Shown here piece by piece: positions 3,575-17,100 of a DNA stretch of 64,000 bases. Under the pieces are notes generated by a model, which was not told where the DNA came from, ran no database searches, and was given only the letters and a program-made list of their open reading frames with translations. The position numbers and the translations under genes were made by a program. Position 1 is the first letter of the stretch. Each line of letters starts with the position of its first letter. Source of the DNA: Escherichia phage Turkey3; sequence record PQ471515.1; one strand, given 5' to 3'.

Positions 3575-3814
3575 ATGGCTAAATCAAAAATGTTCTTAGG
3601 TCACAAAAACAAAACTCATTGGAATGTAAGCCTTTGGATTAATAACGATGAGTCATTGTACCGGTTGGCTCAGGACTTTATTAACGATAGCACTAATCGC
3701 AATGATGCGGCCCGTCATATGATGTTATTTTTAGAACAGACTGGACAAGATAAAACACCGGACGGATTCAAATATAGCACTACTGCGATCCGTGCTGCAA
3801 TGGTTGGAATGTAA
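3575..3814 (+). CDS. hypothetical early protein (paralog of 5618..5857)
   Basis: RBS AGAGGA; shares GHKNKTHWNVSLWINN...PDGFKYSTTAIRAAMVGM with 5618 gene. Confidence 0.7.
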   Translation: MAKSKMFLGHKNKTHWNVSLWINNDESLYRLAQDFINDSTNRNDAARHMMLFLEQTGQDKTPDGFKYSTTAIRAAMVGM

Positions 3815-3899
3815 TAGAATTTATTTAAAGTACTATCATTTTTTGCGATAGTACTTTAAAATAGTGTTTTATTCATACACCAACGATAAGGGCAACAGC

Positions 3900-4166
3900 A
3901 TGAATATTAAGTATTTTGCGACGCGTGAACAAGCTCGGATCGCCGCACGCCAGGACGGGGTAACGTTTAAAGATATGGGCGTACAATCGGAACGTGGTAA
4001 ACGTTGGGCCATTGTAAAGCGTAGTACCGCCAGATCATTACAGTACTGGTTAGCGGCCTTAAAAAGTCCCGATAGTGTATCGCGACGAGTGGTAGAAATA
4101 AAGCTCGACCGAAAGGGCAACCGCGTGACCGTGTACCGTACTAAAAAGATTGCAGTACTTGAATAA
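3900..4166 (+). CDS. hypothetical early protein (paralog of 16705..17100)
   Basis: Shares YFATREQARIAARQDG...DRKGNRVTVY with 16705 gene; start approximate. Confidence 0.6.
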   Translation: MNIKYFATREQARIAARQDGVTFKDMGVQSERGKRWAIVKRSTARSLQYWLAALKSPDSVSRRVVEIKLDRKGNRVTVYRTKKIAVLE

Positions 4167-4173
4167 AAAGTAC

Positions 4174-4201
4174 TTGCAAACTATGTTTAATGGCGTATAA
4201 T
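4174..4201 (+). promoter_or_regulatory. early promoter cassette
   Basis: TTGCAA 4174, TATAAT 4196; hairpin 4216-4233. Confidence 0.65.
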
Positions 4202-4253
4202 GTTTTACATCGAGAGCGGGAACTCTTCCCGCCTATAACCTGGAGTAATAAAA

Positions 4254-4484
4254 ATGACTAATATGTATATGACTGAAGTTAAAACCGTAAAAGATACTAC
4301 CACGAATAAAACTACTTACTTACAGCGGATCTGCGGTGTATGGCAACGTATCAGCAAATCAAAGTACTTTAAATTAACATCATATGCAAACCGTTCGGAT
4401 TCATTCAGTACTGAAATAAAAGGTAATAAAGTACACCAATACGGCACTTATTATTATTATAGCCTGGACGCGATTGCAGTATAA
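4254..4484 (+). CDS. hypothetical early protein
   Basis: ATG with GGAG RBS after promoter+hairpin. Confidence 0.6.
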   Translation: MTNMYMTEVKTVKDTTTNKTTYLQRICGVWQRISKSKYFKLTSYANRSDSFSTEIKGNKVHQYGTYYYYSLDAIAV

Positions 4485-4736
4485 GCAGTTTTTGAAAAAT
4501 ATTTACAATTGCCAGTATTGACTTATTTTGTCAGTACTGGCATAATGTATTCATTGGCAGATAAGCCGTAGCCCATAGGGTGCGGGAGTGTATCTATAGA
4601 AAAAGTAGTTTATTACAGTTACAATTGTGCACCCGGTGGGTTAGCTGTTGTCATGGGGTATATTATGCCAGTACTTGATAATGCTGTCAATACTTTTTTT
4701 TACTATTCAGTACTGAAAACTATTTTTAAAAAGTAC

Positions 4737-4764
4737 TTGCAAACTATGTTTAAAGGCGTATAAT
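4737..4764 (+). promoter_or_regulatory. early promoter cassette (upstream member of tandem promoter pair)
   Basis: TTGCAA 4737, TATAAT 4759. Confidence 0.6.
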
Positions 4765-4770
4765 GTTTTA

Positions 4771-4854
4771 CATCAGGACGGGGAACGAAATAAGTAACTT
4801 CCCGTTAAGTAGCCCAGGAGTAAGGCACACGAAAAACTCCCCTGATAAAATAGT
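4771..4854 (+). ncRNA. conserved transcribed leader / candidate small RNA (copy 1)
   Basis: Lies between two promoters; near-identical copy at 15507-15588; contains stem ACGGGG...CCCCGT-like and CAGGAG...CTCCCCTG. Confidence 0.3.
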
Positions 4855-4882
4855 TTGACAAATGTTTTTAAAAGCGTATAAT
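4855..4882 (+). promoter_or_regulatory. sigma70-like promoter (TTGACA-16-TATAAT)
   Basis: TTGACA 4855, TATAAT 4877. Confidence 0.6.
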
Positions 4883-4914
4883 ACTTACATCAACTACTGA
4901 ATGAGGGTTACAAA

Positions 4915-5526
4915 ATGAAAACTATCACTACTACTACTTATGTTATGGCTTTTTCTGAATTGAACGCAGAACAACAAACGTCAGCTATCGAACTGGTTCG
5001 GGAACGTGAAAAAAACTTAAACGATGATTATTTTTCTGAAAGTGAAATTGAATACTATAAAGAAACAGTACTACCGGAATATGGCATTAATGACGCTGAT
5101 TTACGTTTCAGTGGCTTTTGGTCCCAGGGTGACGGTGCATCAATCAGTACTGACCACGTTGACGCAGTGAAGTTTTTACGCAAGGTAAGAGCATTAACTA
5201 AGTATCGCTCAATCCGTCACCTTCTGAATGAAGATGATTTGGCGATGAGTGTAAAGCGTTCTCACTCCCACTACTCGCATGAGAATACTGTAAGCGGGTA
5301 CATTGAATCGGCTTACACTGATTTAACCGCAAAACAAGAAACGTTAGTTAATGAGCTTGAGGAACTACTCACTGAAACTATTCGTGAATTATCCCGCAAG
5401 TTGTACCGTGATTTAGAGAATGCATATGAGGATCAATTCACTACTGAAAACATTACGGCACTGATTGAGGGTAACGAATATCAATTCAATGTCATTGATG
5501 GTGTAGTAGAATCAATCGAATATTAA
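4915..5526 (+). CDS. acidic hypothetical protein (203 aa)
   Basis: Own promoter, RBS GAGGG; E/D-rich sequence. Confidence 0.65.
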   Translation: MKTITTTTYVMAFSELNAEQQTSAIELVREREKNLNDDYFSESEIEYYKETVLPEYGINDADLRFSGFWSQGDGASISTDHVDAVKFLRKVRALTKYRSIRHLLNEDDLAMSVKRSHSHYSHENTVSGYIESAYTDLTAKQETLVNELEELLTETIRELSRKLYRDLENAYEDQFTTENITALIEGNEYQFNVIDGVVESIEY

Positions 5527-5538
5527 TTTAAAAAGTAC

Positions 5539-5566
5539 TTGCAAACTAAGTTTAAAGGCGTATAAT
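5539..5566 (+). promoter_or_regulatory. early promoter cassette
   Basis: TTGCAA 5539, TATAAT 5561. Confidence 0.65.
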
Positions 5567-15325: not shown

Positions 15326-15343
15326 AAATAATTGAAAAAGGGA

Positions 15344-15372
15344 TTGACTCCGGTCAGTCCCTTTGCTATTAT
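15344..15372 (+). promoter_or_regulatory. repeated terminator/promoter module, copy 2
   Basis: Hairpin GGGATTGAC-tccg-GTCAGTCCC overlapping -35 TTGACT; -10 TATTAT 15367. Confidence 0.5.
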
Positions 15373-15472
15373 ATACGCATAGAAACAAATTAGCCCACCG
15401 GGTGCATAAATGTATCTATTGTTTGCTGGTGGCTAGTACTATCAAGTACTGAAAACTATTTTTAAAAAGTAC

Positions 15473-15500
15473 TTGCAAAGTATCACGATAAGCGTATAAT
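15473..15500 (+). promoter_or_regulatory. early promoter cassette (upstream member of tandem promoter pair)
   Basis: TTGCAA 15473, TATAAT 15495. Confidence 0.6.
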
Positions 15501-15506
15501 GTTTTA

Positions 15507-15588
15507 CATCAGGACGGGGAACGAAACAAGTAACCCCGTTAAGTAGTCCAGGAGTAAGACATACGAAAAACTCCCCTGATAAAATAGT
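15507..15588 (+). ncRNA. conserved transcribed leader / candidate small RNA (copy 2)
   Basis: Near-identical to 4771-4854; stem ACGGGG..CCCCGT. Confidence 0.3.
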
Positions 15589-15616
15589 TTGACAATAGAA
15601 ATTAAACGAGTATAAT
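15589..15616 (+). promoter_or_regulatory. sigma70-like promoter (TTGACA-16-TATAAT)
   Basis: TTGACA 15589, TATAAT 15611. Confidence 0.6.
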
Positions 15617-15649
15617 ACTTACATCAACCACTGATAAGGAAACATTAAA

Positions 15650-15925
15650 ATGCGGATTCTACTGACAGCTAACGAAATCGAACAAGTACTGACTACTAAC
15701 CTGGAAGACTGGAAACGTGAAGCAGATATCCAGGCGGTTCAATGGCTTAACGATAAGTTAACGCCGGATGACTTAAGCAAGATTGTAGATCCTCAATTCT
15801 ACGAAGATATCCACGACACCGCGTTAAGCGTCGAGGATGTACTTGATAAGCACTATATTGATACTGATTTACAGGTTTACGGTCGTAAAAACTTTATCAC
15901 TATTCACGACATTTACAATACTTAA
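15650..15925 (+). CDS. acidic hypothetical protein
   Basis: RBS AAGGAAA. Confidence 0.6.
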   Translation: MRILLTANEIEQVLTTNLEDWKREADIQAVQWLNDKLTPDDLSKIVDPQFYEDIHDTALSVEDVLDKHYIDTDLQVYGRKNFITIHDIYNT

Positions 15926-16013
15926 GTATTGACAAAGTATCTTAGTACTGTATAATAGTTTACATCAAGTGAGGGGAAACGGTTCCCCTCCTAACAAAGA
16001 GAGAGAAATAAAA

Positions 16014-16196
16014 ATGGCTAAGTGCACTATCTGCAAGAAAGAAATAGTATTAGTTCCAAGTGCCCGAGAACGTGCCGCTCGGTTTGGTGGCAAAGCGTCA
16101 GACTATACAAAAATGTTTACTGCCCATACAGCTTGCCAGGTAGCAAAACGTTCACAAGAAAGCGTAGAATTAATGCGTAAACTTTCCAAAAAATAA
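16014..16196 (+). CDS. small Cys-rich protein (CxxC...HxxC)
   Basis: Promoter+hairpin; RBS AGAGAGAGAAA. Confidence 0.55.
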   Translation: MAKCTICKKEIVLVPSARERAARFGGKASDYTKMFTAHTACQVAKRSQESVELMRKLSKK

Positions 16197-16285
16197 GTAT
16201 TGACAAAGTATCTTAGTACTGTATAATAGTTTACATCAAGCGAGGGGAATGGTTCCCCTCCTAACAAAGAGAGAGAGAAATAAAA

Positions 16286-16609
16286 ATGGCTATGATCCTT
16301 ACCCAGAAAGTGGAACTGAAAATTGTAACCTCCTTTGACATTAAAGTTAATCGCTGGACTGATCGGAACGGCAATACTTACCACTCTTGCTACGTGTCAG
16401 CGTTAATTGGCGACCGCTGGGAAGACCTGGGACACGAAACCTTTACATACGGTTACGGTACACAAGGCGAATACACGGGCTTGGAGATCATTAAAGAAAC
16501 CGTTATAGGTTTCAACCCGAAAGAAAAAGTTATTCACCGCATCGAAAAAGAGATTAACAAAGAAATAACAGTTCGCTACTACGATGTAAAACGTAAGAAA
16601 GACATGTAA
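16286..16609 (+). CDS. hypothetical early protein (paralog of 9445..9768)
   Basis: Promoter+hairpin duplicated from the 16014 gene upstream region; paralog. Confidence 0.6.
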   Translation: MAMILTQKVELKIVTSFDIKVNRWTDRNGNTYHSCYVSALIGDRWEDLGHETFTYGYGTQGEYTGLEIIKETVIGFNPKEKVIHRIEKEINKEITVRYYDVKRKKDM

Positions 16610-16704
16610 TAGAATCCATTTAAAGTACTATTTGACATTGCCCAGATAGTACTTTATAATAGACGCTAACTTGTAGTACTATCTCAACTAATAGGATGTA
16701 TACC

Positions 16705-17100
16705 ATGATTACTAAATTCTACGCTACCCGTGAAGCTGCCCGTATTGTTGCACGCGAGGAAGGAGCAGCATTTAAAGACATGGGCAAAGATGCACCGAAA
16801 GGTCAACGCTGGGCCGTACAGTTCAAAGAAATCTCTGATATTGTGAATTCACCTGAGCCAGTACTGACAGCAGCAGAACTAAAACGAGCGGATATGCTGG
16901 CGGCAATACTTGACGCACAAGATGAGTTTATCGCTGGTTCTGATATCAAAGTACAGGCAAACCATACCGCTTGGACTCACGCGGATCACCTGGCAAACCT
17001 TAAGCGTCCAAGTGAACTGATTCGCAACCAGAAAGAGATCCGACACGACCGTAAGGGTAATCGTGTAACAGTATACAGTAAACGCCGCCAGGTTATCTAA
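16705..17100 (+). CDS. hypothetical early protein (paralog of 3900..4166, longer)
   Basis: FYATREAARIVAREEG...DRKGNRVTVY shared with 3900 gene. Confidence 0.6.
   Translation: MITKFYATREAARIVAREEGAAFKDMGKDAPKGQRWAVQFKEISDIVNSPEPVLTAAELKRADMLAAILDAQDEFIAGSDIKVQANHTAWTHADHLANLKRPSELIRNQKEIRHDRKGNRVTVYSKRRQVI

Follow-up and report, generated by a model that had tools for sequence, protein, structure and literature searches.

Promoter-early stem-loops (PeSLs) of T4-type phages are cassettes in which strong early promoters and stem-loops stand before small ORFans, and recombination between PeSLs leads to insertions and deletions (indels), replacements and mini-circles (Arbiol et al. 2010, PMC2839356; Comeau et al. 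2014, PMC4122927). Here, we examine a 64,000-nt stretch of the genome of Escherichia phage Turkey3 (PQ471515.1; hereafter the window), in which an earlier note, made from the letters of the sequence without database searches, had described five dispersed pairs of similar small genes in the early region and attributed them to duplication with divergence. We show that three of the five are true paralog pairs. We consider it likely that the pairs as a whole are products of whole-gene shuffling at repeated promoter cassettes, combined with a pool of early alleles shared among large coliphages.

The early region of the window resembles the PeSL system in several ways. Its repeated intergenic cassettes are AT-rich in their upstream part and contain a strong early promoter of a sigma-70-like kind together with a GC stem-loop and a Shine-Dalgarno sequence; they precede small genes of unassigned function, and the borders of insertions, deletions and replacements between close relatives fall within them. 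A repeated near-consensus promoter motif, a GC stem-loop inside the cassette and indel borders in cassettes, by which PeSLs are recognised, were all found here. One described PeSL subclass also has its stem-loop downstream of the -10 box, and the composite terminator/promoter, in which a hairpin spans the -35 box, occurs here as well (11679-11714, 15337-15372 and 18615-18651). In contrast to PeSLs, the lineage is that of RaK2-like jumbo phages rather than Tevenvirinae, the cassettes cluster in a 21-kb direct terminal repeat and not in internal hyperplastic regions, and their sequence differs, with an AGTACT motif that is very frequent and with promoter and terminator activities that are predicted. 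The region also recalls phages with two-step DNA transfer, which likewise have a long direct terminal repeat, many small genes and strong host-type promoters, the genes of the repeat presumably being expressed first and acting on the host. However, there is no sequence relationship to such phages, the repeat here is twice as long, and we saw no sign of two-step DNA transfer. The process at work appears, from these comparisons, to be cassette shuffling and allele exchange at repeated regulatory sequences, which is a known kind of phage genome plasticity found here in the terminal repeat of a jumbo phage; no new kind of system is revealed.

Early region within the terminal repeat

Judging by its matches, the window comes from a jumbo coliphage of the genus Asteriusvirus (121Q/PBECO4-like). 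The 15 kb around the paired genes matched 171 phage records, the best of which were 350-385-kb Escherichia phages of the genus Asteriusvirus (G17, 121Q, PBECO4, Sharanji and vB_Ec-M-J). The highest coverage of this query by any single record was 69%, and the 15-kb region is therefore mosaic. Base 1 of vB_Ec-M-J aligns with base 1395 of the window, and the vB_Ec-M-J record annotates direct terminal repeats at 1-21525; the equivalent of the repeat was placed accordingly:

1395..22360, + strand: early region, equivalent of the ~21-kb direct terminal repeat, by alignment to vB_Ec-M-J

Terminal repeats of this size have been found in fEgEco12 (~21 kb, by PhageTerm and restriction digests; PMC13070987), and that of Sharanji measures 20,668 bp (PhageTerm). 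Because the repeat-equivalent spans ~1395-22360, all five gene pairs lie inside it. It holds 53 genes on the + strand with a median length of 78 aa and a coding density of 72%; past the repeat, genes turn into tightly packed arrays. The region is the early, host-takeover part of an Asteriusvirus jumbo phage, situated within the long direct terminal repeat.

Paralog pairs of the early region

The coordinates and motifs quoted in the earlier note are all present in the sequence. We refer to the pairs 3575/5618, 3900/16705, 9445/16286 and 9143/12621 as F1A/F1B, F2A/F2B, F3A/F3B and F4A/F4B, respectively, and to the fifth pair by its positions. The features concerned are:

3575..3814, + strand: F1A, DUF7249/phrog_871 protein, 79 aa; promoter 3496-3523, leader hairpin 3538-3552
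3900..4166, + strand: F2A, short phrog_8127 protein, 88 aa
5618..5857, + strand: F1B, second DUF7249 gene, 79 aa; promoter 5539-5566
9050..9421, + strand: F4A cassette, gene 9143-9355 (70 aa, phrog_35559) between two 77-nt promoter repeats
9445..9768, + strand: F3A, phrog_6246 protein, 107 aa; promoter 9375-9403
12527..12800, + strand: F4B, promoter repeat 12527-12603 and gene 12621-12800 (59 aa, phrog_9374)
16286..16609, + strand: F3B, phrog_6246 protein, 107 aa; perfect consensus promoter 16200-16227
16705..17100, + strand: F2B, long phrog_8127 protein, 131 aa; perfect consensus promoter 16632-16660
17413..17988, + strand: two unrelated genes, 17470-17688 and 17746-17988, with the same promoter and leader before each

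Similarity was assessed by BLASTP with SEG on, by Smith-Waterman alignment against 1000 shuffles, and by phmmer among the 53 genes of the region. The long shared block described for 3575/5618 was recovered (67% identity over 79 aa, BLASTP E 6e-38, Smith-Waterman z = 54), as were the similarities described for 3900/16705 (34% over 125 columns, E 1e-18, z = 24) and 9445/16286 (38% over 107 aa, E 6e-28, z = 40), and in none of these cases did any of the 1000 shuffles reach the observed score. These were the sole pairs joined by phmmer at E <= 1, and each corresponds to one family, namely DUF7249/phrog_871 (3575/5618), phrog_8127 (3900/16705) and phrog_6246 (9445/16286). Masking of low-complexity segments, which the earlier note had named as a way to dismiss the similarities, left all three significant (E 1e-18 to 6e-38). 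Here, we show that these three are true paralog pairs.

The remaining two seem not to go back to gene duplication; instead, they reflect repeated promoter cassettes flanking genes that are present in some relatives and absent from others. For 9143/12621, the shared promoter holds (77 nt, 86% identity between the F4B repeat and the repeat at 9050), with a protein similarity that is only marginal (BLASTP E 0.075; z = 5.9, 0/1000 shuffles; not found by phmmer). Profile comparison gave an hhalign probability of 65% (E 6e-5), and the two proteins belong to different PHROGs with a cross hit at E 0.048. They stand behind the same promoter class, and an F4-type gene lies directly 5' of F3 both in the window and in Phapecoctavirus, so far consistent with what we would call marginal homologs. 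A 48-aa ORF (open reading frame) at 13529-13675 (121Q gp293) has G.YVVSYG in common with 12621 (z = 4.1, with 4/1000 shuffles reaching the score) and no similarity to 9143; this ORF may belong to the F4 group as its third member. For 17470/17746, the duplication of promoter and leader was confirmed (17413-17472 and 17689-17748, identical at 53/59 nt), and these are all that the two loci have in common, the proteins being unrelated (z = -1.3).

Promoter cassettes and gene gain and loss

A typical cassette is composed of an AT-rich upstream element bearing AGTACT, a near-consensus sigma-70 promoter, a GC stem-loop at the transcript start, a ribosome-binding site and a small ORF, and most of the ~53 terminal-repeat genes have a sigma-70 promoter, GC stem-loop and ribosome-binding site of their own. 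All ten perfect TTGACA-16/17-TATAAT promoters are on the + strand, which also holds ~40 promoter sites with at least 10/12 matches against 5 on the - strand. A 78-nt cassette occurs in 20 copies in the region. The ~50-nt leaders of the common cassette class form GC hairpins of -12 to -16 kcal/mol (e.g. GGGGAGAAATGGTTCTCCCC), and the leaders (29-45 nt) of D8-class and several other promoters fold at 0 to -4 kcal/mol.

In comparison with five relatives, only 2/43 distinct indel or replacement breakpoints fell in gene interiors, where 58% were expected (p = 1.5e-13). We show that gene gain, loss and replacement between close relatives occur almost only at the borders of the predicted cassettes. 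In several insertions the alignment ends overlap by 55-101 nt, and a cassette copy therefore lies on both sides of the inserted DNA. Repeat-flanked indels were seen directly at 9143 (in comparison with G17) and at 17470 (with PBECO4). At the former, the 77-nt promoter repeats on either side of F4A (9050-9126 and 9345-9421), which begin in the last codons of the preceding gene, are 100% identical, and G17 and Sharanji have one such repeat and no F4A gene. At the latter, the promoter/leader repeat of PBECO4 is a single hybrid copy, and the 17470 gene is missing. Both loci look like textbook traces of direct-repeat recombination, by which a gene is deleted or inserted.

vB_Ec-M-J, which is 97% identical, carries two single-gene cassettes that the window lacks (J 2212-2449 and J 17815-18212), whereas one cassette of the window (10956-11207) is missing from vB_Ec-M-J; the differences at window positions 3491-3570, 10924-11206 and 19048-19148 are each bordered by promoter cassettes. 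The AGTACT palindrome occurs 138 times between 1395 and 22400, where 6.8 occurrences are expected from base composition, and 112 times in the rest of the window (13.9 expected). Most occurrences lie immediately 5' of the -35 box or immediately ahead of the -10 box in promoter cassettes, a placement suggesting that it could be a regulator site or a part of the promoter. Longer intergenic modules, repeated 4-6 times, were also observed (4484-4900, 11660-11880, 13340-13530, 15318-15640, 18597-18830 and 20879-20914). They carry a terminator-like hairpin of 12-13 bp, AAAGGGATTGACTCCGGTCAGTCCCTTT, which also holds a -35 box (TTGACT-17-TATTAT), followed by a conserved CCCACAGGGTGCATAAATGTATC element and a second standard promoter; an Rfam search of these modules gave no match.

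Exchange and copying of paired genes

F1A and F1B both exceed the gathering threshold of PF23907 (27 bits) with 45 and 50.7 bits, respectively, and F1A, which also matches phrog_871 at E 1e-29, was found in every Asteriusvirus locus fetched. The DUF7249 family is widespread in phages of Escherichia, Synechococcus, Ralstonia, Pseudomonas, Vibrio and others. At the nucleotide level the two genes form a mosaic: the last 19 codons are identical at 55/57 positions, codons 9-33 at ~85%, and the central 26 codons at ~40%, such that near-identical N- and C-terminal blocks enclose a centre that looks unrelated. Across 42 DUF7249 alleles of at least 60% identity, the entropy of the central segment is 1.53 bits versus 0.33-0.51 in the flanks. 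In a confident predicted model (pLDDT 89), this hypervariable segment corresponds to the end of helix 2, helix 3 and the next loop, and it is likely to be a specificity surface. The literature searched contained no mention of DUF7249 and no description of two stacked mosaic DUF7249 alleles in one genome.

The protein of F1A is 90-92% identical to the single copy of many 150-kb Phapecoctavirus phages, and F1B agrees with the copy of Phapecoctavirus 3A1_SA_NWU at 93.7% of amino acids and 95% of nucleotides (228/240), with flanks of only 55% and 18%. Each type therefore resembles Phapecoctavirus alleles (90-94% aa) more than it resembles the other (67%). The dS between F1B and 3A1_SA_NWU is 0.078; that between F1A and 121Q, within the genus, is 0.51. 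In 121Q, G17 and Sharanji the slot of F1B is occupied by an unrelated gene and F1B is missing. The replacement borders lie in the upstream promoter cassette and ~20 nt past the stop codon. The replacing gene of 121Q and G17 is not itself a DUF7249 gene. We show that the 5618 ORF has undergone a recent exchange with a Phapecoctavirus, precise at the ORF borders; F1A and F1B are two alleles stacked in one genome and not copies diverging in place.

The second pair is the one in which a copying event left a scar. F2A and F2B match phrog_8127 over their full length (E 1e-25 and 1e-35), and the DNA upstream of them is homologous from ATG TAA TAG AAT...AAAGTACTAT. At the F1A-F2A junction, the ATG TAA TAG sequence is the natural end of the DUF7249 gene (...VGM stop). 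At the left junction of F2B (16604-16640), the last DUF7249 codon, the stop codon and the intergenic DNA replace the end of F3B, and F3B therefore terminates in KKDM instead of the KKDL of all further family members examined. The divergent Asteriusvirus EJP2 has, at the position of F2 next to F1, a full-length gene with an F2B-type leader. Because of the DUF7249-end scar and this full-length F2 of EJP2, we conclude that F2B was copied from an F1-F2 junction. We show that the junction of the 16705 cassette is a scar of non-allelic copying from a DUF7249-F2 junction. To judge from the alignments, this is the sole pair in which copying is directly visible, the donor being either the same genome or a co-infecting relative, and for this pair the earlier suggestion of duplication with divergence in the early region fits. 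After copying, F2A appears to have lost its middle and its -35 box, F2B having a perfect consensus promoter. Alignment with EJP2 and RaK2 homologs puts the loss at ~45 central residues, in frame. Junction alignments reveal a promoter remnant 5' of F2A with its -35 box destroyed, and no promoter was listed there in the promoter scan; F2A is probably read through from the F1A promoter.

Directly downstream of F2B lies a further small gene:

17162..17416, + strand: ParE-like gene (PF24732), 84 aa, without its own promoter

Its protein matches PF24732 with 43 bits (E 4.6e-11; cut-off 24.4), and the RaK2 homolog reaches 41 bits. The succession of a long F2 and a ParE-like gene also holds for RaK2 and for six metagenomic contigs (L164-L167, L170, L171), where the F2 homologs are of only 41-43% identity. 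No ParE-like gene was found after F2A, after either EJP2 copy of F2 or in contig L169, and the gene that follows the second EJP2 copy was rejected as a ParE-like candidate. This arrangement suggests that F2 may be a partner of the ParE-like protein. As in ParD/ParE type II toxin-antitoxin pairs, the long F2 is directly upstream and co-oriented, with an order conserved in distant relatives. Unlike in such pairs, F2 matches no antitoxin family, a hairpin and T-run (17123-17147) separate the two genes, and the short copy F2A has no ParE-like partner; toxicity and its neutralisation would be conjectural here.

The third pair also matches its family over the full length (phrog_6246, E 6e-41 and 4e-35), and the F3 proteins have RW.D.YGNTYHS, F.YGYG and DVKRKKDL as common motifs. 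The identity of F3A to F3B (38%) is about the same as that to the Phapecoctavirus copy (37%), and the EJP2 copy is nearer (46%). A neighbour-joining (NJ) tree separated F3A, placed with Phapecoctavirus, from F3B, but was not relied on, all of its deep bootstrap values being below 21%; the grouping of F3A with F3B received 4.5%. Given this poor support of the deep nodes, the F3 pair may have arisen by duplication or by acquisition.

Age and distribution of the copies

Both dN/dS and the presence or absence of each copy in related phages, suggested earlier as checks, were evaluated, the former with 121Q, PBECO4, vB_Ec-M-J, G17 and Sharanji as the set for ortholog comparison. Orthologs of every copy are 83-100% identical across these phages. 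Ortholog dN/dS was 0.03-0.22 in most comparisons, indicating that each copy is a maintained gene under purifying selection. Between paralogs, dS was saturated for F2 and F3 and 0.71 for F1, and we show that the paralogs separated long before the Asteriusvirus relatives compared here diverged from one another. The low dS and mutually closest copies that a recent in-situ duplication leaves behind were not found, and with Phapecoctavirus alleles being closer for 3575/5618, the view that duplication is ongoing in this region found no support.

The copies differ in how widely they are distributed. F3B occurs in 35/36 matching phage records (>= 90% identity), F2A in 35 and F2B in 34 (both >= 80%). 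F3A occurs in 26 only and F1B in 27, some of them Phapecoctavirus (both >= 90%), and F4A in 20 (>= 80%); F1B, F3A and F4A are thus found in only part of Asteriusvirus. At the family level, F2 hardly occurs outside the RaK2-like jumbo phages. By comparison, F1 and F3 are found widely among unrelated viral contigs, F3 in 73 of many sizes. Homologs of F1, F3 and F4 are present in 145-150-kb coliphages in the order F4-F3-F1, and the F4-F3 order recurs in a 355-kb uncultured phage. The succession of 9143 and 9445 in the window echoes this order as kept in Phapecoctavirus. EJP2 has many of the same early genes at 75-97% nucleotide identity, in an order differing from that of window positions 3000-22000, and carries two F2 copies and an extra DUF7249 copy of types not seen in the window.

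Origin of the pairs

Our preferred explanation for these observations is whole-gene shuffling at repeated promoter cassettes, together with an early-allele pool common to large coliphages. The repeated regulatory cassettes would provide short homology arms for recombination, and the conserved gene ends of DUF7249 could provide further arms. The partners in recombination might be sites of one genome, the two terminal repeats or concatemer units, or phages that infect the same cell, and recombination would delete, insert, duplicate or swap whole genes as in the PeSL cassettes of T4-type phages. The proteins would act early against host functions or defences, and two diverged copies would widen the range of targets. 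Several considerations weigh against this explanation. The case rests wholly on sequence comparison, the promoter, stem-loop and recombination activities being predicted. Purifying selection alone would clear breakpoints from gene interiors, and therefore the breakpoint enrichment does not prove that the cassettes are the recombination substrate, which only the repeat-flanked indels do. Most stem-loops lie after the -10 box, in the transcript leader, unlike many PeSLs, and they may stabilise mRNA rather than terminate upstream transcription. Moreover, transfer between Asteriusvirus and Phapecoctavirus may have run in either direction, and F3A and F3B could still be sisters, considering that every deep node of their tree, including the 4.5% grouping, is poorly resolved.

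The explanation favoured in the earlier note, that plain in-situ duplication and divergence within the Asteriusvirus lineage accounts for all pairs, seems to us rather unlikely. The scar in the F2B cassette does attest to copying from an F1-F2 junction, but a co-infecting relative is an equally possible donor. The five close relatives fetched, like almost all matching records, have the two copies of F2 and of F3 (RaK2 having a single F2), as a duplication within the lineage would lead one to expect; however, dS is saturated for these two families, the copies are dispersed rather than tandem, and F3A is no nearer to F3B than to the Phapecoctavirus copy and nearer to that of EJP2. Likewise, the near-identical terminal blocks common to F1A and F1B are in line with duplication, whereas each of the two proteins as a whole is nearer to Phapecoctavirus alleles than to the other, and for 17470/17746 the proteins are unrelated. 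The converse, that the pairs are xenologs acquired copy by copy from different phages without any duplication in the lineage, we judge unlikely. It agrees with the ORF-precise, 95% nucleotide identity of F1B to a Phapecoctavirus gene, with the restriction of F1B, F3A and F4A to part of the genus, with the F4-F3-F1 homologs of 145-150-kb coliphages and with the spread of F1 and F3 through unrelated viral contigs. Yet the F2 family is almost confined to RaK2-like jumbo phages, the scar ties F2B to the F1-F2 arrangement typical of Asteriusvirus, and Asteriusvirus may itself be the donor of F1.

That the similarities are nothing but chance or low-complexity matches of short AT-rich ORFs, or of translated promoter sequence, is hardly credible. 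Such matches do exist: many of the region's apparent ORF matches arise from translation of promoter cassettes (e.g. MFYIERGKWF), the first 20 codons of the 17413/17689 ORF match lie upstream of the real ATG, and 9143/12621 is weak. For 3575/5618, 3900/16705 and 9445/16286, this reading is refuted by the SEG-masked E values, by z scores of 24-54 that no shuffle equalled, and by the assignment of the two members of each pair to one PHROG or Pfam family; it holds for the proteins of 17470/17746 alone. Cassette shuffling with a shared allele pool thus remains the explanation we prefer. A more far-reaching version of it, in which the 350-kb Asteriusvirus and the 150-kb Phapecoctavirus, as unrelated genera, would share one early-allele pool, the DUF7249 ends would serve to swap a hypervariable specificity helix used in an arms race against defences or targets of the host, F2 would be the antitoxin-like partner of the ParE-like protein and F2A a decoy against host toxins, is quite doubtful.

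These results show how the terminal-repeat early region of a jumbo coliphage, encoding almost exclusively hypothetical proteins, is organised and how it changes. Its genes would be units bounded by promoters and open to loss, gain, copying and trade, the last even with phages from a different subfamily. This may offer a rule for interpreting why one therapeutic Asteriusvirus isolate has a gene that another lacks. Candidates for testing in host takeover or anti-defence are DUF7249, whose middle is hypervariable, and the pair of F2 and the ParE-like gene. No function for F2, F3 or F4 emerged from Pfam, NCBIfam or PADLOC, sequence searches of solved structures with the F1, F2 and F3 profiles returned nothing below E 0.04, and fold searches with two predicted models gave generic matches only; the F3 model was predicted from a shallow alignment (6 proteins from the homolog search).

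Neighbouring sequences

A tRNA scan and an Rfam scan of the whole window gave no match. At the left end of the repeat-equivalent, ~1.7 kb (1395-3060) is without a convincing ORF and may be packaging- or end-related sequence, or a non-coding RNA; of the copies of repeat family D20 (2467, 2683 and 6544), the first two lie inside it. Further right, a 194-aa protein (18020-18604) has a weak protein-kinase-like match (Pfam Pkinase E 1.3e-3, under the cut-off). Just before the start of the terminal repeat, five small ORFs of 61-69 aa, beginning MNKEHKEYY or MHKDYKEYY, follow one another at 93-1091, three of the five being detectably related; they form a tandem array of paralogs such as the earlier note had called the big arrays.

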